From Candidatus Woesearchaeota archaeon B3_Woes (GTDB lineage: Archaea > Nanobdellota > Nanobdellia > Woesearchaeales > B3-WOES): a DNA stretch of 64,000 bases. The notes under the pieces were generated by a model, which worked only from the letters and a program-made list of their open reading frames with translations, made no database searches and had not been told where the DNA came from. Shown one piece after another: positions 3,572-62,799 of the stretch. The translations under genes were made by a program, and so were the position numbers. Where the stretch lies: the NCBI GenBank assembly GCA_005222965.1, contig NJBG01000001.1, forward strand, positions 896,167 through 960,166. The letters are read 5' to 3'. The stretch's first letter is position 1; each line of letters begins with the position of its first letter.

Positions 3572-4352
3572 GACTATAGGCATAATTGGAGCAGGTTGTC
3601 TTGGACAAGAAGTAATTGATGCACTTTATAACAAAGGACATAGGAACATTATCGCTACGCGTCGCAACCAGGATAAACTAAGATCATTAGGTGAAAAGTA
3701 CCAAGGAATCCAGACGAGTTCTGATAATAATTATGCTGCTAAGGAATCTGATGTGCTGATTCTAGCTGTAAAACCCCCATTGATTGATACTGTCTCCAAA
3801 GAGATAAGTTACTATACTAGTAACAAGCTTGTTATTTCATTAGCAGCTGCAAGAACCATTGAACAAATAGAATATGCGTTTAGTGATGAGTCTGCACGAG
3901 TTGCTCGTGTGATAACAGGACTGTTTGTAGCCGAAGAAGTTGCTGCTTACACACTAAGCAATAGATGCATAAATGAAGATGAAAGTGCAATTAGATACAT
4001 CTTTGGCCAAGATGCTAGATCTATAGAAGAAAATCTTCTTGCACATCGTACATTTATTGCTTGCGACACAGGTTTGATACCTAAATCTATTGGAGAGAAA
4101 ATGCAAGAACTAGAAAGATTAGGTATTAGTAAAGAAGAATCTAGATTGTTCTATGCTGCAACACTTCATGCAATAGCTAACCACCTAAGTGAAGGCATAA
4201 GTGGAGAAGAAATTTACGAGGCAGTAGGGGGAAAAGGTAGTTTTACTCAAAAACTAGGAAATGAACAAGAAGGAATTTACAGACTACAACAAAAACAAGT
4301 TACTGAAACAGTAAATGCTTGTTTAGGGAGGAAAGAAAATGGAAGAGATTAG
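3552..4352 (+). CDS. pyrroline-5-carboxylate reductase-like / F420-dependent NADP oxidoreductase family (Rossmann fold)
   Basis: N-terminal IGIIGAGCLG dinucleotide-binding motif, then ESDVLILAVKP, both typical of the ProC family. The 3516 start in the ORF track is probably too far upstream. GC content is visibly higher than the neighbours. Confidence 0.55.
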   Translation: MVVFLVKTIGIIGAGCLGQEVIDALYNKGHRNIIATRRNQDKLRSLGEKYQGIQTSSDNNYAAKESDVLILAVKPPLIDTVSKEISYYTSNKLVISLAAARTIEQIEYAFSDESARVARVITGLFVAEEVAAYTLSNRCINEDESAIRYIFGQDARSIEENLLAHRTFIACDTGLIPKSIGEKMQELERLGISKEESRLFYAATLHAIANHLSEGISGEEIYEAVGGKGSFTQKLGNEQEGIYRLQQKQVTETVNACLGRKENGRD

Positions 4353-4581: not shown

Positions 4582-5694
4582 TCAAACCCTTTCTTGAATA
4601 ATTAATTTTAGTTCATTAACAATGAGATTTATTAGTTCTTTTGATTTTATCTCATTTATCTTTTTTCTAGGGTTCCAGTCTATTCCAGGATTGGTATTCC
4701 CTTCAATAAAATATAAATTTCCATTATTACTTCGCATAAAATCCAAAGCGTACAGAGAATGTTTTAAATTCAATTTTGCTTCTAATTTTTTAATTATTTT
4801 TCTGGTCATAGTTAGAACGTCTTTATGTATTGTTTTTATGGACATGTAAACCAAATTTCCACCCTGGTGTTCATTGCATTTAAAATTCCCTTTTCTTGCA
4901 ATTCTTATATATGTCTGTATAATTTTATTGTTTAGTATTATAACTCTCAAATCAATAAGTCCATGATATTTTCCAATACTAAAACCCTTATTGCAATTAA
5001 TAAATGGTTGGAGTATGTAAGATAATATTTTTCCACTTTTTTTGTCTAATTCATAGTGTTTCATGATATCTTTAAAGCCAAATTTATCAAAATCTACTTT
5101 ATATATGTTAAAGCCACCTGCACCTGTTTTATCTTTTATTATATAACTATCATTAAAATCAGCTCTATATCTATACCTTTTTAATAATTTATCCAAATTG
5201 GTTTTAGCTAGAATTATTTTTCGTTTTGAAGAGTTAATTATTTCTACTGTAGGTATTGCAAATTCTTTAAAATGTTTATAGGTATTTAATTTATTCTGGA
5301 AAATATCTTTTATTTTTTCATTATTAAACGTATAAACAGATTTGGAAGATGTGAGCAATTTTAATTTATTTTTTTGTTTGATAGTAAAAGGAGTGAATTT
5401 ATCAAAAAGGACTCGGGAATATGCTTTACCATAATTTCTAACCCATTCTTTATCATATGTCCAAAAACTCTGAAAAAGACCAGATCCAATAATATCTTTG
5501 GATGTTGCAAAAGCGGCCTTAATGCCCATTTTTTTGCATCTTAATAAAAAATAAAGATAGCTATCATTGTAACCCCCTCGCCTGTCTTTGAATGAAAAAG
5601 GGAATTTTTCTCTATATTGCTTATCTCTTGCACTATTTGCAAAAGATTCTGAGTAAATTATAATTGCATCATACTGCTTTATTTTAATATCCAT
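4582..5694 (-). CDS. ATP-grasp domain protein (YheC/D- or RimK-like)
   Basis: Motifs YIIKDKTGAGGFNIYKV, DLRVIILNNKII and LYFIEGNTNPG match the ATP-grasp nucleotide-binding core. Confidence 0.45.
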   Translation of the reverse strand: MDIKIKQYDAIIIYSESFANSARDKQYREKFPFSFKDRRGGYNDSYLYFLLRCKKMGIKAAFATSKDIIGSGLFQSFWTYDKEWVRNYGKAYSRVLFDKFTPFTIKQKNKLKLLTSSKSVYTFNNEKIKDIFQNKLNTYKHFKEFAIPTVEIINSSKRKIILAKTNLDKLLKRYRYRADFNDSYIIKDKTGAGGFNIYKVDFDKFGFKDIMKHYELDKKSGKILSYILQPFINCNKGFSIGKYHGLIDLRVIILNNKIIQTYIRIARKGNFKCNEHQGGNLVYMSIKTIHKDVLTMTRKIIKKLEAKLNLKHSLYALDFMRSNNGNLYFIEGNTNPGIDWNPRKKINEIKSKELINLIVNELKLIIQERV

Positions 5695-8003: not shown

Positions 8004-9230
8004 ATGTTTAATAGTTTAAAAGAAAAATTAAAGAAAGCAATTTCTAGATTTTCTAAAAAAGTTGATGAAATAGAAGAACCTGTAGAAGAAGTTAAAGAAA
8101 AGCCAAAGCCAGTTGAGAAAAAACCTATTCAAAAACCTAAAAAAGAGAAAAAAGAAAAAGCAATTAAAAAAAAGAAAGAAGAAGTAAAAGAAGAAAAGCC
8201 AAAACCTGTTATTGAAAAACCGAAAGAAGAACCAATTGTTGAAGAACCTAAAAAAGAGAAAAAATCATTCTTTGGATTTAAGAAAAAGAAAGAAAAACCA
8301 ATCGAAGAAAAGAAAGAAGAACCAATTATTGAAGAACCTAAAGAAGAAAAACCTGTTGAAGAAGAAAAAAAAGGAATCTTCAAAAAAATAACAACAAAGA
8401 AAATAGATCAAGAACAATTTGAAAAATTATTCTGGGAACTGGAATTGGCTCTAATGGAAAATAATGTTGCTATAGAAATCATAGATAAAATTAAACAAGA
8501 TCTAAAACAAAATCTTGTTGATAAACCTCTAACAAGAACAAAAATAGATGAAACAATTAAAAATACTCTGAAAAATTCTATAAAAGAAATATTAGAAGTC
8601 GATAAAATAAATTTACTTGAAAAAATAAAAGAAAAAAAACCCTATGTAATCTGTTTTGTTGGTATAAATGGTTCTGGTAAAACAACAACAATCGCAAGAA
8701 TAGCACATCTTTTACAAAAAAATAATATAAGCAGTGTAATGGCTGCTTCAGATACATTCAGAGCAGCAGCAATCGACCAAATACAACATCACGCAGATAA
8801 ATTAAATGTCAAATTAATTAAACAAGATTATGGATCAGACCCAGCAGCAGTCGCTTTTGATGCAATTAAACATGCAGAATCAAAAAACATAGATGTTGTT
8901 CTAATTGATACAGCAGGAAGAATGCATTCTAATGCTAATTTACTGGATGAAATGAAGAAAATAATTAGAGTTGCAAAACCAGATATGAAAATTTTTGTTG
9001 GAGAATCAATAACAGGGAATGATTGTACTGAACAAGCTAAAAAATTCAACCAAGCAATTGAAATTGATGGAATCATACTAACCAAAGCAGATGTTGATGA
9101 AAAAGGAGGGGCTGCATTATCTGTTAGTTATATAACCAAAAAACCAATCTTGTACATAGGAACAGGCCAAGGATACAATGATTTAAAAGAATTCTCTTCA
9201 GACACTATTCTAGATAATCTAGGACTTTAA
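8004..9230 (+). CDS. ftsY: signal recognition particle receptor FtsY
   Basis: N-terminus MFNSLKEKLKKAI, a Lys/Glu-rich acidic linker, and the SRP GTPase motifs GINGSGKTTT, DTAGR and TKADVDEKGG. The ATG at 8004 sits right after the prefoldin stop. Confidence 0.85.
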   Translation: MFNSLKEKLKKAISRFSKKVDEIEEPVEEVKEKPKPVEKKPIQKPKKEKKEKAIKKKKEEVKEEKPKPVIEKPKEEPIVEEPKKEKKSFFGFKKKKEKPIEEKKEEPIIEEPKEEKPVEEEKKGIFKKITTKKIDQEQFEKLFWELELALMENNVAIEIIDKIKQDLKQNLVDKPLTRTKIDETIKNTLKNSIKEILEVDKINLLEKIKEKKPYVICFVGINGSGKTTTIARIAHLLQKNNISSVMAASDTFRAAAIDQIQHHADKLNVKLIKQDYGSDPAAVAFDAIKHAESKNIDVVLIDTAGRMHSNANLLDEMKKIIRVAKPDMKIFVGESITGNDCTEQAKKFNQAIEIDGIILTKADVDEKGGAALSVSYITKKPILYIGTGQGYNDLKEFSSDTILDNLGL

Positions 9231-21569: not shown

Positions 21570-23489
21570 ATGGAAACAAAAGTACCTGCACTAAAAAAAT
21601 TCCTAGAGGAAGTTAAAAGTTATAATCCAAAAGCAGACTTTAAAATAATTGAAAAAGCATTCAATCTATCAAAAAAAGCCCACAAAGGCCAAAAAAGAGC
21701 ATCAGGCAAACCCTACTTCTCTCATCCAATTGCAGTTGGAAGAACACTAATGGATCTTAATGTAGATTCTGCCACAATATGCGCATCTCTTTTACATGAT
21801 GTTATAGAAGATACAAAAATAACATATGAACAACTATCAAAAGAATTCAATAAAGAAATAGCAAATATTGTTGATGGCTTAACTCATATAGAAAAGATAA
21901 AATTTCAAAGCAGGGAAGAATATACTAATAAAAATATAAGAAAAGTTTTGCTAGCATCATCTAAAGATATTAGAATAATCTTAATCAAGTTAGCAGACAG
22001 GCTCCACAACATGCAAACCCTAAAATACATAAATCAAGGGAATCAAAAAAGGATAGCTAGAATAACTTTAGATATATTTGCACCGATTGCTGAAAAATTA
22101 GGATTATGGACTATTAAAGGAGAATTAGAAGACCTTTCATTAAAATTCCTAGAACCAAAAACATACGAATCTCTTAAAAAGAAGATTGGTGAAAAAAGAA
22201 CAAAAAGAGAACAACAAACAATAGAGATTGTTAACCTAATCCAAAAAGAACTTGAACACAACCATATAAAAGCAAAAACATTTGGAAGAGCAAAATATTT
22301 CTACAGCATCTACAAAAAGATGACGAAAAAGGATAAGAGATTTGATGAAATATTCGATTTAATTGGTATCAGAATAATTACTTCTAATGAAAGAGAGTGT
22401 TACGCAGCATTAAATTTAGTGCATAATCTATGGCCTCACAAAAAAACACAACTCAAAGATTATATAAAATACCCAAAAGACAACGGCTATCAATCAATGC
22501 ACACAACCGTCTATGGTCCTTATAATAAAGTACTGGAAATCCAGATAAGAGATCTTAAAATGCATTATGAAGCAGAAGGAGGTATTGCTGCTCATTGGAG
22601 ATATGCTGGAACAGAAAGAGACAAAGAATTTGACAGGCGTATCCAATGGTTTAAACAAGCAATAGAATGGAGAAGGTTTTCAAAAAACGCAAAAGAGTTT
22701 ATAGAAAACCTTAAAATGGATTTTTATGAAAACGAAATAATAATATTAACACCAAAAGGAGATCCTATTCCATTAAAAGAAGGCTCAACACCTTTGGATT
22801 TTGCTTACGAACTTCACACTTCAATCGGAAATCATTGTTCTGCAGCTATTGTAAATGGAAAAGCAGTTCCATTAGACTATAAATTAAAGAGCGGCCAAGT
22901 AGTTAACATAATAACCAAAGAAAAAGCCCACCCCTCTAGCTCATGGCTTAATATTGTCCAGACAAATCGTGCAAAATCCAAAATAAGAAGTTCTCTTGGA
23001 CTTACAATGAAGAGAAGCAAAATCACAATACCCTCTTTTGAAGAATCAAGCATAGCTCATAAATTACAGCTTAAAGATCCAACAATAAAAGCCAAAATAA
23101 AAATTGCAAGGTGCTGTAATCCTAGACTAAACGACCCTGTGATGGGTTACAAATACAACCACAACATAATAATTGTACACAATATAGAATGTCCTCAGAT
23201 GTCTGTTTTTGATAAAACAAAAAGAGTAAATGTTTTTTGGAAAATTAAGGAAACAGAAATAGATTCTAACACATTTAGAATAAAAGTTACTGACAGGGTT
23301 GGATTATTATCAGAAATACTTAATCTTTTCTCACAATATGGTCTTAAATTAGAATCTGTAACAACAAAAATATCCAAGAAAAGAGTTTTTTTTATAATTA
23401 AGATAAAGAAAATAAATCCAAAAACTTCAAAAGAAATCTTCACAAGACTTAAAACAATACCAAATGTCTTAGATATCTTCTTTGTCTAG
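21570..23489 (+). CDS. long RelA/SpoT homolog (HD hydrolase + (p)ppGpp synthetase + TGS + ACT)
   Basis: HD motif (SHPIAVG...LLHDVIEDT). Synthetase motifs (FGRAKYFYSIYKKM, DLIGIRIITS, YQSMHTTV). TGS region (IILTPKGDPIPLKEGSTPLDFAYELHT). C-terminal ACT-like segment. 639 aa. The last 73 bp of the gene are duplicated at 27301..27376. Confidence 0.85.
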   Translation: METKVPALKKFLEEVKSYNPKADFKIIEKAFNLSKKAHKGQKRASGKPYFSHPIAVGRTLMDLNVDSATICASLLHDVIEDTKITYEQLSKEFNKEIANIVDGLTHIEKIKFQSREEYTNKNIRKVLLASSKDIRIILIKLADRLHNMQTLKYINQGNQKRIARITLDIFAPIAEKLGLWTIKGELEDLSLKFLEPKTYESLKKKIGEKRTKREQQTIEIVNLIQKELEHNHIKAKTFGRAKYFYSIYKKMTKKDKRFDEIFDLIGIRIITSNERECYAALNLVHNLWPHKKTQLKDYIKYPKDNGYQSMHTTVYGPYNKVLEIQIRDLKMHYEAEGGIAAHWRYAGTERDKEFDRRIQWFKQAIEWRRFSKNAKEFIENLKMDFYENEIIILTPKGDPIPLKEGSTPLDFAYELHTSIGNHCSAAIVNGKAVPLDYKLKSGQVVNIITKEKAHPSSSWLNIVQTNRAKSKIRSSLGLTMKRSKITIPSFEESSIAHKLQLKDPTIKAKIKIARCCNPRLNDPVMGYKYNHNIIIVHNIECPQMSVFDKTKRVNVFWKIKETEIDSNTFRIKVTDRVGLLSEILNLFSQYGLKLESVTTKISKKRVFFIIKIKKINPKTSKEIFTRLKTIPNVLDIFFV

Positions 23490-30074: not shown

Positions 30075-31229
30075 CTACTGCTTTAGGACATCAACCTTAT
30101 CTGTTTTTTCCCATGTAAAGTCAGGATCTTCTCTTCCAAAATGACCATATGAAGCTGTTTTTCTGTATATTGGTCTTCTTAAGTCAAGCTGTTCTATTAT
30201 ATCCTTTGGTTTTAATGGAAAATGTTTTTTTATTAATTCAACTATTTTTTCTTCTGGTATCTTGTTTGTTCCAAAAGTATCCACAAAAACACCAGTAGGT
30301 TCTGCCACTCCAATTGCATATGCCAGCTCAACTTCACATCTGTCAGCTAATCCTGCAGCAACAAGATTCTTAGCAATATATCTTGCAGCATAAGTAGCAG
30401 ATCTATCTACTTTTGAAGGATCTTTTCCAGAAAAACACCCACCACCATGTCTTCCCATACCACCATAAGTATCTACAATTATCTTTCTCCCTGTAACTCC
30501 TGTATCTCCTTCTGGTCCGCCTACAACAAACTTTCCTGTTGCATTTATATGGACTTTTGTATTTTCATCAAAATAATCCCCGCAAACAGGTTTAATTACT
30601 TTCTCAAGAATTTCCTTTTTTAATTCATCTTCTGAAATAATCTCTAAATGTTGTTGAGCAATAACAACTGCTTCAACTCTTTTTGGCTTTCCATCTTCAT
30701 ATTCAACAGTAACCTGAGATTTGCCATCAGGTCCTAGATCTTTTATTTCGCCATTTTTTCTTACGTCTGCTAGTTTTCTTGTTAATTTATGAGCCAAACT
30801 TATTGGCAATGGCATTAATTCCTCTGTTTCATTACACGCATAACCAAACATCATTCCCTGGTCTCCTGCGCCTTGTTCTCCAGATGCTCCCTGACCTTCT
30901 GTAACTCCTATAGATATATCAGGTGATTGCTCATGAATAGCAACCCAAACACCAGCATCCTCATAATCAATTCCAAAATCTGGATTAGTATAACCTATAT
31001 CTTTTAACACCTCTCTGACAACCTTTTGAACATCTGCAAAACCTTTTGTTGTTACTTCACCTGCAACATGCACAGATCCAGTTGTTGTTAAACACTCAAT
31101 AGCAACTCTTGATTGAGGGTCTTGTTTATACAATTCATCTAAAATCCCATCAGAAATTTGATCACATACTTTATCTGGATGACCTTCTGTTACTGATTCA
31201 GATGTAAATAAAAAATTTTTTTGTTCCAT
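30075..31229 (-). CDS. metK: S-adenosylmethionine synthetase, bacterial/eukaryotic type
   Basis: [21 protein letters not shown]-terminus, the [12 protein letters not shown] motif, and [17 protein letters not shown]. This is not the archaeal-type MAT family. Confidence 0.9.
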
Positions 31230-33156: not shown

Positions 33157-33361
33157 AAAAACTTTTTCTCGAATAAAATAATATTTTGGGTAACACCCAT
33201 TAAACAAAGTATCCTTCCTTTAGAGTCTGAAAATCAATCGAAAGTTTTTTAAATAAATTCATTTCATAAATCTAGTTAATTTTCATGCAAAGCCACCAAT
33301 ATGAAAAGATATTTAAACTAACAGGTTTCGTTATTTTTCAAATATAAAGGAGGTAAACAAA

Positions 33362-33409
33362 ATGGGATGTGACGGATGTAGTTCAGATGATGATAAAGAT
33401 AAAGATTGA
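33362..33409 (+). CDS. candidate micro-ORF (15 aa, MGCDGCSSDDDKDKD)
   Basis: Preceded by the same 17-mer (ggaggtaaacaaaatgg) as the small ORF at 3491. May well be non-coding. Confidence 0.15.
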   Translation: MGCDGCSSDDDKDKD

Positions 33410-33479
33410 GGCATAGAAACTTTTTTAAATAACATAAAAATGCCTTACATAGACTAAATATGATTTAGTCTATAATAAT

Positions 33480-33782
33480 GAGCCCATAGCTCAGTCTGGA
33501 GAAATAAGCGATTGGACCCAACTTTTAATATTGTTCCAATAATTGCTTTTCTTTGTTGATGAAAGTGTTCTGCATTTTTATCATGAAATGAGCTTGCTTG
33601 TTTCGGGCAATTAGAGCGCCGGTCTTATATGGCCGCTTTCGGTTCAATCTAGGAAAGCCGGAGGTCGGGGATTCAAATCAGCTTAAAAGTCAGCTGGCAC
33701 CTTTGTGGGTTTCGCAACTTTGTTGCTCAAGCCCACTTAGTCAAGTGCTTGGCTTTTAGCTATGAAAGTTCCCTTGGGCTCA
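33480..33782 (+). ncRNA. candidate multi-intron tRNA or structured ncRNA (tRNA-like 5' end, 7-bp terminal complementarity)
   Basis: The 5' end gagcccatagctcagtctgga resembles a tRNA acceptor and D-arm. The 3' end tgggctca is the exact complement of the 5' acceptor plus a discriminator A. A T-stem/loop-like GGGGATTCAAAT lies internally at about 33668. The segment attgg-acccaa...ccaat could be an anticodon arm carrying CCA (Trp). No contiguous cloverleaf is present. Confidence 0.3.
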
Positions 33783-33791
33783 TTTTTAAGT

Positions 33792-33912
33792 GCTCCTATA
33801 GTGTAGCCCGGTCAATCACTCTGCCTTTTCGTGTTGGCAATCAAAGATTCCCAAAATTTTTTGATTCCACCAAAAAAAGGCAGGAACAGGGGTTCGAATC
33901 CCCTTAGGAGCA
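33792..33912 (+). tRNA. tRNA-Glu (anticodon TTC) with 46-nt intron at 37/38
   Basis: Exons give acceptor GCTCCTA/TAGGAGC, anticodon arm CTGCC-TTTTCGA-GGCAG and T-arm AGGGG-TTCGAAT-CCCCT. The intron is tgttggcaat...ccaccaaaaaa, located between loop positions 37 and 38. Confidence 0.75.
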
Positions 33913-33943
33913 TTTACTTTTAGTTCATAAAATAGAATTAAAA

Positions 33944-34228
33944 ATGAAAAAAGATAAAGAACTTTTAAAAATAGAATGGGAAAATCATAAAGTGTATACT
34001 TTTGGATCACTTTCTGCTAGTCTCATTATTGCTTTTGGAGTATTATCAAATCTAAATCAACTCAAGGAGAATTTAATTTCTTTGTCTCTTCTAGTACTTA
34101 GTTTTGTTGTATTTATGATAGCTTTTTTTGTCTCTCTCAAAGCAATGGGATCAACATATAAAGAGTTAAGAAATGTGATAATTAACAGAAAGCCTAAGAA
34201 GAACAAACCTAGAAAAAAGAATTTTTAA
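33944..34228 (+). CDS. small membrane protein
   Basis: Two TM helices and a basic C-terminal tail. 94 aa. Confidence 0.3.
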   Translation: MKKDKELLKIEWENHKVYTFGSLSASLIIAFGVLSNLNQLKENLISLSLLVLSFVVFMIAFFVSLKAMGSTYKELRNVIINRKPKKNKPRKKNF

Positions 34229-56190: not shown

Positions 56191-57450
56191 TTAACTCCAC
56201 TTCTCTAAAGCCTTTTTTAATTCTGAATGAGAAATTGCATATTTTTTCAAACTCTTTTTCTTTAATACAGCATCAACAGCCTGTCTTGCTGCTTGTGCAC
56301 CTTTTAAAGTTCCCAGAGGATGGCCATGAATCCCTCCACCCATCTGAATAATTATATTCTTTCCCATCATCTTAATTAAATCAGGAACCATTCCAGGATG
56401 TAATCCACCAGAACAAACAGCAAAAGTTGGTTTTAGATTATACCATCTTTGCTCTAAACAATGAATATTTTTATTTGGCTGTACAATTCTTTCCTCAATC
56501 TCAATCTCACATCCCATAACTTCAGCAGAAGAACCTTCCATTTTTCCAACAACAGTTCCTATATGAAGCTGATCAACACCAACTAATCTAGATAATTTAG
56601 AAATTGTCAGCATTGAAATACCATGTTTAGGATTTCTGGTTAAAGCAGCATGCATTGCTCTGTGAGCATGAATAACCAATCCTAAATTAAGGTTTCTTAT
56701 TGTTTGTACAGCACTCCAACCAGCTGTTAAAATATCAATCATAATGTATCTTCCACCAGATTTCTTTACAAACTCTGCTCTTTTTATCATCTCTTGAGTT
56801 TCAGCAGTTATATTAGGCATGTAAACCTTTTTTTCACCAGTCATATCCTCTGCCTTGTTTCTTGCATCTATTGTATGAATAACCCTGTCTTCAAATCTGT
56901 TAAATGACTGATCTGTTAAATTCTCATCATCTTTTACAACATCACAACCACCAACCCAGGCGTGTTTAGCTACTTGTGCGTGCTCTTTTGCACTTAACCC
57001 AACCTTTGGTTTTACAATTGTTCCAACTAAAGGTCTATTTTTAACTCCTACTATCTTCCTAACACCTTGAATCCCAAAAGCAGGCCCTTTATATTTATCA
57101 ACAATCTTTTTTGGCAGACTTATATCTTCTAATCTCAAATTTTTAAGAAGTTTCATTCCAAAAACATTTCCTGCAACAGCACTTAGTATCTGAGGAATAT
57201 TATCATATTCAAAAAGTTCAGGAGGATAAGCAATTTTTATGTAACTTCCTTTTATTGAAAATACAGTTGGCTTTAATTTTTTAGCAATCTTTGGACTCAT
57301 AGTTACAATACTAGTCCATGTTCCAATAGAAGATTCAGCTGCAATCTGTTCAGCAGCTTCACTCACAGAAATCTTATTTGGTTCAACAAAGTATTCCACA
57401 ATAACATCATCAAGAGAAGGTTTGTATTTAAGATCAATATAATTAAGCAT
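56191..57450 (-). CDS. rbcL: ribulose-1,5-bisphosphate carboxylase/oxygenase large subunit, form III (archaeal type)
   Basis: VKPKVGLS, GGCDVVKDDENLTDQ and the C-terminal GGGIHGHP motifs. 419 aa. No small-subunit gene is adjacent. Confidence 0.9.
   Translation of the reverse strand: MLNYIDLKYKPSLDDVIVEYFVEPNKISVSEAAEQIAAESSIGTWTSIVTMSPKIAKKLKPTVFSIKGSYIKIAYPPELFEYDNIPQILSAVAGNVFGMKLLKNLRLEDISLPKKIVDKYKGPAFGIQGVRKIVGVKNRPLVGTIVKPKVGLSAKEHAQVAKHAWVGGCDVVKDDENLTDQSFNRFEDRVIHTIDARNKAEDMTGEKKVYMPNITAETQEMIKRAEFVKKSGGRYIMIDILTAGWSAVQTIRNLNLGLVIHAHRAMHAALTRNPKHGISMLTISKLSRLVGVDQLHIGTVVGKMEGSSAEVMGCEIEIEERIVQPNKNIHCLEQRWYNLKPTFAVCSGGLHPGMVPDLIKMMGKNIIIQMGGGIHGHPLGTLKGAQAARQAVDAVLKKKSLKKYAISHSELKKALEKWS

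Positions 57451-60891: not shown

Positions 60892-62799
<1,908 letters not shown>

Follow-up and report, generated by a model that had tools for sequence, protein, structure and literature searches.

The window analyzed here is a 64,000-nucleotide stretch of the genome of Candidatus Woesearchaeota archaeon B3_Woes (contig NJBG01000001.1), and all coordinates are positions within it unless a homolog is named. It carries on its plus strand, at 33480-33782, a locus of 303 nucleotides (nt) that, as judged from the sequence of the locus and of its relatives, is very probably a genuine and functional gene for tRNA-Ile(UAU) of a woesearchaeote (DPANN), interrupted by three introns. The locus displays all testable defining features of a tRNA gene with multiple bulge-helix-bulge (BHB) introns, a kind of gene that is already known. 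Comparative evidence is decisive for this identification, namely the constancy of the exons, the existence of alleles that are free of intron 3, and the BHB pairing.

The two ends of the locus (GAGCCCATAGCTCAGTCTGG at the 5′ end and TTCCCTTGGGCTCA at the 3′ end) make up the acceptor stem. The first seven nt, GAGCCCA, are matched exactly by the reverse complement of positions -8 to -2, TGGGCTC, and the terminal base is A. A preliminary description of the locus had pointed out these tRNA-like ends, their 7-base-pair (bp) complementarity and the discriminator A, and had suggested a tRNA with two or three introns at canonical and noncanonical positions. Three introns are found, one canonical and two noncanonical (Table 1), and the split T-arm that had been proposed is real (GGGGA-TTCAAA...T-TCCCT). 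The four exons are colinear on one strand within 303 nt, in contrast to those of a split or permuted tRNA gene. CCA is not encoded after A73; the next bases are TTTTTAAGT. As also stated in that description, the unspliced locus holds no contiguous cloverleaf: ARAGORN makes no call on 33480-33782 with its intron mode on or off, and Rfam returns no match at gathering thresholds or at E ≤ 10. The locus is richer in GC than the window as a whole (43.9% versus 30.6%), and its RNA has a minimum free energy (MFE) of -109.3 kcal/mol (z = -4.94 versus 100 shuffles).

Table 1 Features of the proposed tRNA-Ile(UAU) gene and its surroundings. W, A or T(U); Y, C or T(U); R, A or G; N, any base; H, helix between the two bulges; h′, helix next to H; vertical strokes in bulges are replaced by a slash marking the cut
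Feature	Position	Strand	Description
Exon 1	33480-33499	+	acceptor 5′ strand, U8 A9, D-stem 5′ strand, D-loop to G19
Intron 1	33500-33610	+	111 nt, D-loop, between G19 and U20
Exon 2	33611-33629	+	U20 U20a A21, D-stem 3′ strand, G26, anticodon stem 5′ strand, C32-A37, anticodon UAU
Intron 2	33630-33655	+	26 nt, canonical 37/38
Exon 3	33656-33677	+	A38, anticodon stem 3′ strand, variable loop AGGUC, T-stem 5′ strand GGGGA, T-loop U54-A59
Intron 3	33678-33768	+	91 nt, T-loop 59/60; 54-nt lineage-specific expansion at 33698-33751
Exon 4	33769-33782	+	U60, T-stem 3′ strand UCCCU, acceptor 3′ strand, discriminator A73
Intron 1 BHB			H = G15 Y16 C17 U17a with GGRC; 5′ bulge G18 G19 / W; 3′ bulge A A / Y20
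Intron 1 h′			GAAATAAGC with GCTTGTTTC
Intron 2 BHB			H = C32 U33 U34 A35 with UARG; 5′ bulge U36 A37 / Y; 3′ bulge A A / A38
Intron 3 BHB			H = U54 U55 C56 A57 with UGAA; 5′ bulge A58 A59 / N; 3′ bulge A G / U60
Hairpin I, conserved	33507-33547	+	in intron 1
Hairpin II, variable	33558-33582	+	in intron 1; holds TGATGA
Hairpin III, local	33585-33604	+	in intron 1
TATA-like box	33421-33431	+	TTTTTTAAATA; 49-59 nt upstream of tRNA +1; putative archaeal promoter
Palindrome, perfect 10-bp	33450-33472	+	tagactaaat-atg-atttagtcta; between TATA-like box and tRNA
tRNA-Glu(UUC)	33792-33912	+	Rfam tRNA (48.4 bits) and ARAGORN; 9 nt downstream; 46-nt canonical intron at 33832-33877

Joining of the exons gives a product of 75 nt (GAGCCCATAGCTCAGTCTGGTTAGAGCGCCGGTCTTATAAGCCGGAGGTCGGGGATTCAAATTCCCTTGGGCTCA) with the junctions CTGG/TTAGAGC, CTTATA/AGCCGG, and TTCAAA/TTCCCT. 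All 21 cloverleaf stem pairs form in it, and by our own reading it carries U8, A14, G18 G19, A21, U33, U54 U55 C56, A58, and A73 together with the T-loop UUCAAAU. The anticodon arm CCGGT-CTTATA/A-GCCGG is assembled from 33619-33629 and 33656-33661; removal of intron 2 leaves the 7-nt anticodon loop C U U-A-U A A, in which U33 and A37 are present. ARAGORN calls the joined exons tRNA-Ile(tat) in the window, in 12 close homologs, and in one distant homolog.

The homologs (numbered with the prefix L) come from three sources. A scan of GTDB species genomes with a pattern of exon 3 returned the distant homolog, L001. A scan of metagenome contigs gave 17 matches, 11 of which are close homologs; nine of these contain the whole gene, and L005 and L013 are truncated 5′. 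The matches L006, L009, L010, L011, and L017 look like chance matches in GC-rich coding sequence, and L004 resembles the 3′ end of another tRNA. Synteny through a DegT-like gene 1.6 kb downstream led to six further loci from three lineages, among which L020, L022, and L024 duplicate L019, L021, and L023. The comparison comprises the window and 12 close full-length loci. Sixteen related loci, of which 14 contain the gene in full, represent about eight lineages when the window is included. A scan of viral contigs yielded zero matches.

Throughout this set the four exons are essentially invariant. Exon 1, compared in the window and 13 full-length close loci, changes only by T/C at position 16 and exon 2 only by T/C at its first base, the latter in L023. 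Exon 3 is constant in 12 loci, and L023 has GGGAG-TTCGAA and with it a T-arm that is different yet paired; exon 4 is invariant in 12 loci. The mean pairwise identity across the eight lineages amounts to 97.5% for the exons, compared to 62% for intron 2, 47% for intron 3, and 45% for the middle of intron 1; the first 60 nt of intron 1 reach 80% across lineages. The lengths of the introns vary as well (109-157 nt for intron 1, 26-49 nt for intron 2, and 0-129 nt for intron 3 in the close loci). The base after G19 is either A or T amid exon bases that are all fixed, which places it in the intron.

Intron 3 is missing in L002, L003, and L014, and the sequence found there, GGGGATTCAAATTCCCT, is exactly the predicted junction TTCAAA/TTCCCT. 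Two of these alleles have very close relatives that bear the intron. Over 800 nt of flank, L014 and L008, the latter with intron 3, are identical to about 98%. L002 is about 98% identical in the tRNA region to L015 and L018, but it has neither intron 3 nor the intron in the neighboring tRNA-Glu gene. Growth of intron 3 takes the form of nested hairpin insertions: its length is 0 nt in the three alleles just named, 28-47 nt in most loci, and 91 nt in the window, owing to a 54-nt insert in the apical loop (33698-33751) that has no match elsewhere in the window. In L021 the same insert and another one bring intron 3 (8655-8783 of that locus) to 129 nt.

The splice motifs follow a common layout. 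In each arm, four loop bases after the stem pair with four bases that are separated by two positions from the intron's 3′ end, so that a 4-bp helix H lies between two 3-nt bulges, and the cut falls between bulge bases 2 and 3. The BHB fold at the exon-intron borders, which the preliminary description had named as a check of its proposal, is present at all three introns. Applied to intron 3 and to the tRNA-Glu intron, the same rule for the cut yields the alleles that occur in nature without these introns (for tRNA-Glu, that of L002). Pairing was assessed in a fixed-register alignment of eight distinct close loci, which is structure-based and hence biased toward structure; 94.1% of the BHB cells are paired in it, compared to 26-50% after displacement of the partners by 1-3 columns. 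In 500 shuffles, neither the observed percentage paired nor the covariation score was reached. The H helices of introns 1, 2, and 3 are paired to 100% in these loci. One pair of the intron 1 H occurs as U.G and C-G in the alignment and as U-A in L019 and L023, and one pair of the intron 2 H as U.G and U-A. In h′, four of eight pairs in intron 1 and four of five in intron 3 have changed on both sides. The BHB of intron 3 is strict save for its first h′ pair, which is mismatched.

L001 (CAZRCV010000014.1, minus strand, about 3592-3775) encodes the same tRNA without an intron in the D-loop. Its introns are located at 29/30 (18 nt), 37/38, and 59/60, and that at 29/30 forms, by our own reading, a perfect BHB (H = GCGC/GCGC, h′ = UUCC/GGAA). 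The uninterrupted D-loop of L001, AGTCTGGCTA, equals the predicted spliced D-loop of the window in length and pattern. The record is titled “uncultured Methanosarcinales archaeon,” and the contig has 38% GC; its three-intron tRNA-Ile(UAU) shares the unusual T-arm with the woesearchaeotal loci. The taxonomic label of the contig may be wrong.

Several observations weigh against the identification as a working three-intron tRNA gene. ARAGORN is permissive: when the three deletions are placed at random with the acceptor ends fixed, about 10% of the products are still called tRNA, as is the product of every shift of the junctions by ±2 nt, and its call alone is therefore weak evidence. By a stricter cloverleaf score, 0 of 200,000 random triple deletions equal the real product, a figure that is not a formal p-value. 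The close loci include no allele that lacks intron 1 or intron 2, whose junctions are placed by the BHB rule and by conservation. The BHB of intron 1 is relaxed on the exon side, where U20a and A21 are unpaired between the 3′ bulge and the D-stem, and an alternative pairing of 6 bp competes with it; in intron 2, h′ has only 2-3 bp and is 79% paired. Relaxed features of this kind have been described for noncanonical archaeal introns (PMC5829648). The unconstrained MFE structure is devoid of the BHB conformations: G18 G19 pair with UC beside the H of intron 1, and the T-stem is shifted in register. A fold forced to the cloverleaf and three BHBs has -101.6 kcal/mol, which equals the centroid energy and lies 7.7 kcal/mol above the MFE. 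The T-stem in the lineage of the window (33667-33671 with 33770-33774) contains A53-U61 instead of the near-universal G53-C61 that the other three tRNAs of the window possess. A53-U61 is shared by 12 close loci and by the distant homolog L001; L023 and L024 have GGGAG/CTCCC with G53-C61. Finally, a Pfam scan detects no EndA gene among the open reading frames (ORFs) of the window.

Some of these features would suit a decaying tRNA pseudogene or a relic made of fragments that are no longer spliced to a working tRNA, given that standard finders are blind to the locus, that the A53-U61 pair is atypical, and that the introns keep expanding by lineage-specific insertions. Against decay stands the contrast between near-invariant exons and introns of 45-62% identity, a sign of strong purifying selection that acts on precisely these 75 exon bases. 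Moreover, the BHB pairings are maintained by compensatory changes, intron loss is precise, and AUA is the most frequent Ile codon and needs a decoder. A relic is accordingly regarded as quite improbable.

The second alternative leaves the tRNA in place and assigns a separate role to intron 1, which would host a C/D-box guide small RNA like the intron of euryarchaeal tRNA-Trp. The preliminary description had noted a C-box-like TGATGA hexamer, and this hexamer is indeed present at 33557-33562; its conservation and a C/D role are not borne out. It reads TGATAA in the nearest relatives and is unrelated in other lineages, and it forms one strand of a hairpin of lineage-specific sequence. Neither a CTGA D/D′ box at 12-nt spacing nor a C′ box accompanies it. 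Rfam gives weak, subthreshold matches of small nucleolar RNA type only upstream of the gene, and none inside intron 1 at E ≤ 10. A C/D-box host is thereby rated as very improbable, still more so than a relic.

The conserved part of intron 1 is also the source of a third alternative. The preliminary description read attgg-acccaa...ccaat as an anticodon arm with the anticodon CCA, which would make the gene a tRNA-Trp with other intron borders. ATTGGA (33512-33517) does pair with TCCAAT (33535-33540), and the element is conserved. However, it lies inside intron 1, and its arms enclose 18 nt and not a 7-nt loop. The CCA model further leaves TTAGAGCGCCGGTCTTATA...AGCCGGAGGTC unexplained, which supply the 3′ strand of the D-stem, a 5-bp anticodon stem, and the canonical BHB intron at 37/38, and L001, which is without the element, still encodes tRNA-Ile(UAU). 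The model is hardly conceivable, and the anticodon is UAU. Equally hard to credit is a stand-alone structured noncoding RNA with pairing ends, similar to RNase P RNA or signal recognition particle (SRP) RNA as the preliminary description had offered: it could draw on the very stable fold and the paired ends, but no Rfam family matches (RNase P RNA, SRP RNA, and group I introns included, at gathering thresholds in the window and at E ≤ 10 in 33300-34000), the four invariant blocks form a cloverleaf with variable or dispensable spacers in the manner of exons and introns, and whole spacers are missing in some alleles.

With the three-intron tRNA-Ile(UAU) as the preferred reading, the interior of intron 1 deserves separate consideration. 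The intron is present in every close locus that has the D-loop region on its contig. Its core hairpin is conserved and consists of AGCGAT/ATTGCT, in which C-G is exchanged for U-A and G.U for A-U between lineages, a bulge of 2-3 nt, and TGGA/TCCA. The core also contains a conserved CC(C/T)AACT stretch, found as GTCCAACT in L023. Four co-varying segments (a, a′int, a2, and a′) give rise to two mutually exclusive pairings. In the first, a′ (8 nt beside H) pairs with a (33501-33509) at the 5′ end of the intron and forms the h′ of the BHB, with 8-9 bp and at most one mismatch in most close lineages. In the second, a′ pairs with the adjacent copy a2 (33585-33592) in a local hairpin whose pairing is complete (8/8) in the loci compared for it. 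An insertion in L023 has displaced the local hairpin, and only the long-range pairing GAAAC/GUUUC is left beside H. Because L023 keeps the long-range pairing only, it supports a:a′ as the likely functional helix, h′. The repeats a and a2 are read as probable alternative pairing partners.

Other explanations for the interior of intron 1 fared less well. A nested BHB in hairpin I (AUA bulge, UGGA-UCCA, CCC bulge) was rejected: the AAC/GUU helix fails, a 2x1 internal loop occupies the 5′ side of the hairpin, and in the L007 group the bulge on the 3′ side has 2 nt. Insertion of a mobile element with an 8-9-bp target duplication (a and a2) is weakened by the covariation of both copies with their partner across lineages, and by L023, in which only the 5′ copy can pair beside H. 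The introns resemble one another, the tRNA-Glu intron, and the rest of the window only in chance 12-mers.

The D-loop intron might be more than a passive spacer and possibly a functional RNA itself, an idea that is tentative and rather unlikely to be right. It is based on the retention of intron 1 in the close loci, the 80% identity of its first 60 nt compared to 45-47% elsewhere, and the alternative pairings. By analogy with the intron-dependent pseudouridylation of yeast and Cyanidioschyzon merolae, intron 1 could be a cis element that determines in which order the introns are spliced or controls the modification of U34/U36 of tRNA-Ile(UAU). Alternatively, it could be a stable, probably circular, excised RNA that acts in trans.

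The demand for the tRNA is evident from the ORFs of the window, in which AUA, with 46.9 per 1000 codons, is the commonest Ile codon; a decoder of AUA is therefore indispensable. The path from gene to decoder is proposed by analogy with known tRNA biology of Archaea. Transcription would start from the TATA-like box and probably produce a dicistronic Ile-Glu precursor with a 9-nt spacer. In the folded precursor, a 4-bp helix, in which loop bases pair with the 3′-terminal part of the intron, would lengthen each arm stem and be flanked by two 3-nt bulges. EndA would subsequently cut between bulge bases 2 and 3, six times in total, and an RtcB-type ligase would join the four exons, with release of the introns, probably as circles. 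Trimming of the ends and addition of CCA would give the 75-nt tRNA, which would be charged with isoleucine and read AUA. In the Pfam scan, neither RtcB nor a TiaS-like match was detected among the ORFs of the 64-kb window.

The tRNA-Glu(UUC) gene directly downstream, whose intron the preliminary description had also recognized, is found by both Rfam and ARAGORN (Table 1). Its intron content is polymorphic, with 46 nt in the window and intronless alleles in L002, L016, and L019. In L021, tRNA-Glu (8926-9070) has the canonical intron and a 59/60 T-loop intron ending in ...CGAAAG/T, a junction type that matches intron 3 of tRNA-Ile. L023 carries at 5568-5690, just upstream of an intact tRNA-Glu gene, a duplicated 5′ fragment of tRNA-Glu (GCTCCCATAGTGTAGCC and about 118 nt of unrelated sequence), which appears to be left over from a rearrangement or from a disrupted copy. 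A scan of the window for T-arms and acceptor ends revealed no hidden tRNA besides the three known ones.

Upstream of the tRNA-Ile gene, the TATA-like box has a putative promoter role, and the block atagaaaNctttttaaa is kept in the close homologs whose stored upstream sequence reaches far enough. From the spacing of the box, the transcription start would fall inside the 5′ arm of the palindrome. An inverted repeat lies at the same place in the close homologs with upstream sequence and is absent from L001. It shows paired changes, with G-C, G.T, or A-T at one position and A-T replaced by G-C in L016 and L021, and a different 7-bp hairpin takes its place in L023. The palindrome may be an RNA leader hairpin or a DNA operator. 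A small ORF (33362-33409, MGCDGCSSDDDKDKD followed by a stop) lies after a GGAGG-like motif just upstream of the promoter region and is kept with changes in L002 and L003 (MGCGDCCSDDDKDKD and a stop). An exact look-up of the upstream ORF gave no record.

Directly upstream of tRNA-Ile, some homologs have stretches of about 6 kb without called genes (3956-10001 in L019, 2292-8650 in L021, and 2961-9387 in L024), and that of L019 adjoins a gene for a “23S_rRNA_IVP” protein. These stretches may be rRNA operons, which would put tRNA-Ile(UAU) just downstream of the rRNA genes there. Several homologs stem from metagenome assemblies cited in deep-sea sediment studies, and the accession prefixes of others suggest marine water-column metagenomes. 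Archaeal markers encoded by the window itself are ribosomal protein S3Ae, prefoldin, and a GTPase of SRP54 type, which is read as FtsY. The S3Ae and DegT-like proteins have 100% identity to proteins of Candidatus Woesearchaeota archaeon B3_Woes. The window also encodes the large subunit of RuBisCO, a full-length RelA/SpoT (HD, RelA_SpoT, TGS, ACT), an S-adenosylmethionine synthetase (MetK) of bacterial/eukaryotic type, and the gyrase B subunit (ORFs at 56191-57450 on the minus strand, 21570-23489 on the plus strand, 30075-31229 on the minus strand, and 60904-62799 on the plus strand). Such gene content is typical of DPANN archaea with acquisitions of bacterial type.

Close parallels in architecture are found in Thermoproteales (Crenarchaeota). 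Noncanonical introns in that order are mostly short. As in Thermoproteales, the tRNA described here has no more than three BHB introns, noncanonical sites such as 59/60, constant exons with variable introns, and intron gain or loss between close relatives. Differences are the host, a DPANN archaeon (Woesearchaeota) with about 30% GC, and the long D-loop intron (109-157 nt) with its conserved 5′ core, present in all close loci with the D-loop region on the contig. Up to three introns per archaeal tRNA are established, mainly in Thermoproteales (PMC4033280, PMC8450103), where multi-intron tRNAs were found with SPLITS and tRNAscan-SE 2.0 according to the work of Sugahara (2007/2008) as cited in the same two papers.

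Multi-intron tRNAs are likewise known from ARMAN and Nanoarchaeum equitans. The pre-tRNA-Ile(UAU) of ARMAN-2 (Micrarchaeota) has a 25-nt canonical intron with a strict hBHBh′ motif, and tRNA-Ile(UAU) occurs in three ARMAN lineages, where it has been proposed to replace the TiaS/agmatidine/CAU system (PMC3239211). The present gene resembles that of ARMAN-2 as a DPANN tRNA-Ile(UAU) with a canonical intron of about 25 nt, and introns at 59/60 occur in ARMAN genomes (PMC3239211); it differs in having three introns instead of one. tRNA-Ile(UAU) is otherwise rare in Archaea and has been reported in N. equitans and Korarchaeum cryptofilum (PMC6000648). For DPANN EndA, the α4 type or other types with an “L3” loop have been reported (PMC5829648). 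A eukaryotic counterpart exists in the red alga C. merolae, whose tRNA-Ile(UAU) has three introns in the same three arms (PMC9602550); they modulate pseudouridine formation and leave in a set order. The isoacceptor and the spread of BHB-type introns over three arms are the same in both; the algal introns are far shorter, presumably with an independent origin.

Precise presence or absence of introns between near-identical genomes, as in L008 versus L014 and L002 versus L015 and L018, is reminiscent of Caldiarchaeum subterraneum, in which tRNA gene disruption is polymorphic at the population level (PMC3293823), and of Thermoproteales, for which intron transposition has been described (Fujishima 2010, as cited in PMC4033280). 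Unlike in that transposition, introns of different tRNAs are similar here only where the BHB requires it; the 59/60 introns of tRNA-Ile and of tRNA-Glu in L021 share only the ...GAAAG/T end.

DPANN archaea, Woesearchaeota included, have been reported to show raised tRNA disruption and incomplete predicted tRNA sets, and undetected disrupted genes have been suspected (PMC5829648). A 2026 preprint similarly lists tRNAs that are missing by tRNAscan-SE from many complete genomes of Woesearchaeales (Nanobdellota) (10.64898/2026.05.13.725050). The locus provides a concrete and comparatively validated case of such a hidden DPANN tRNA, the decoder of the commonest Ile codon that ARAGORN and Rfam miss, and its exon patterns and BHB geometry are usable to recover the gene in other DPANN genomes. 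Three introns per tRNA are the known maximum, reached here outside Thermoproteales in a DPANN archaeon. The near-identical strains with or without an intron offer material for the study of loss, gain, and expansion of archaeal tRNA introns, and the sampled woesearchaeal lineages use tRNA-Ile(UAU), a tRNA that is rare in Archaea.

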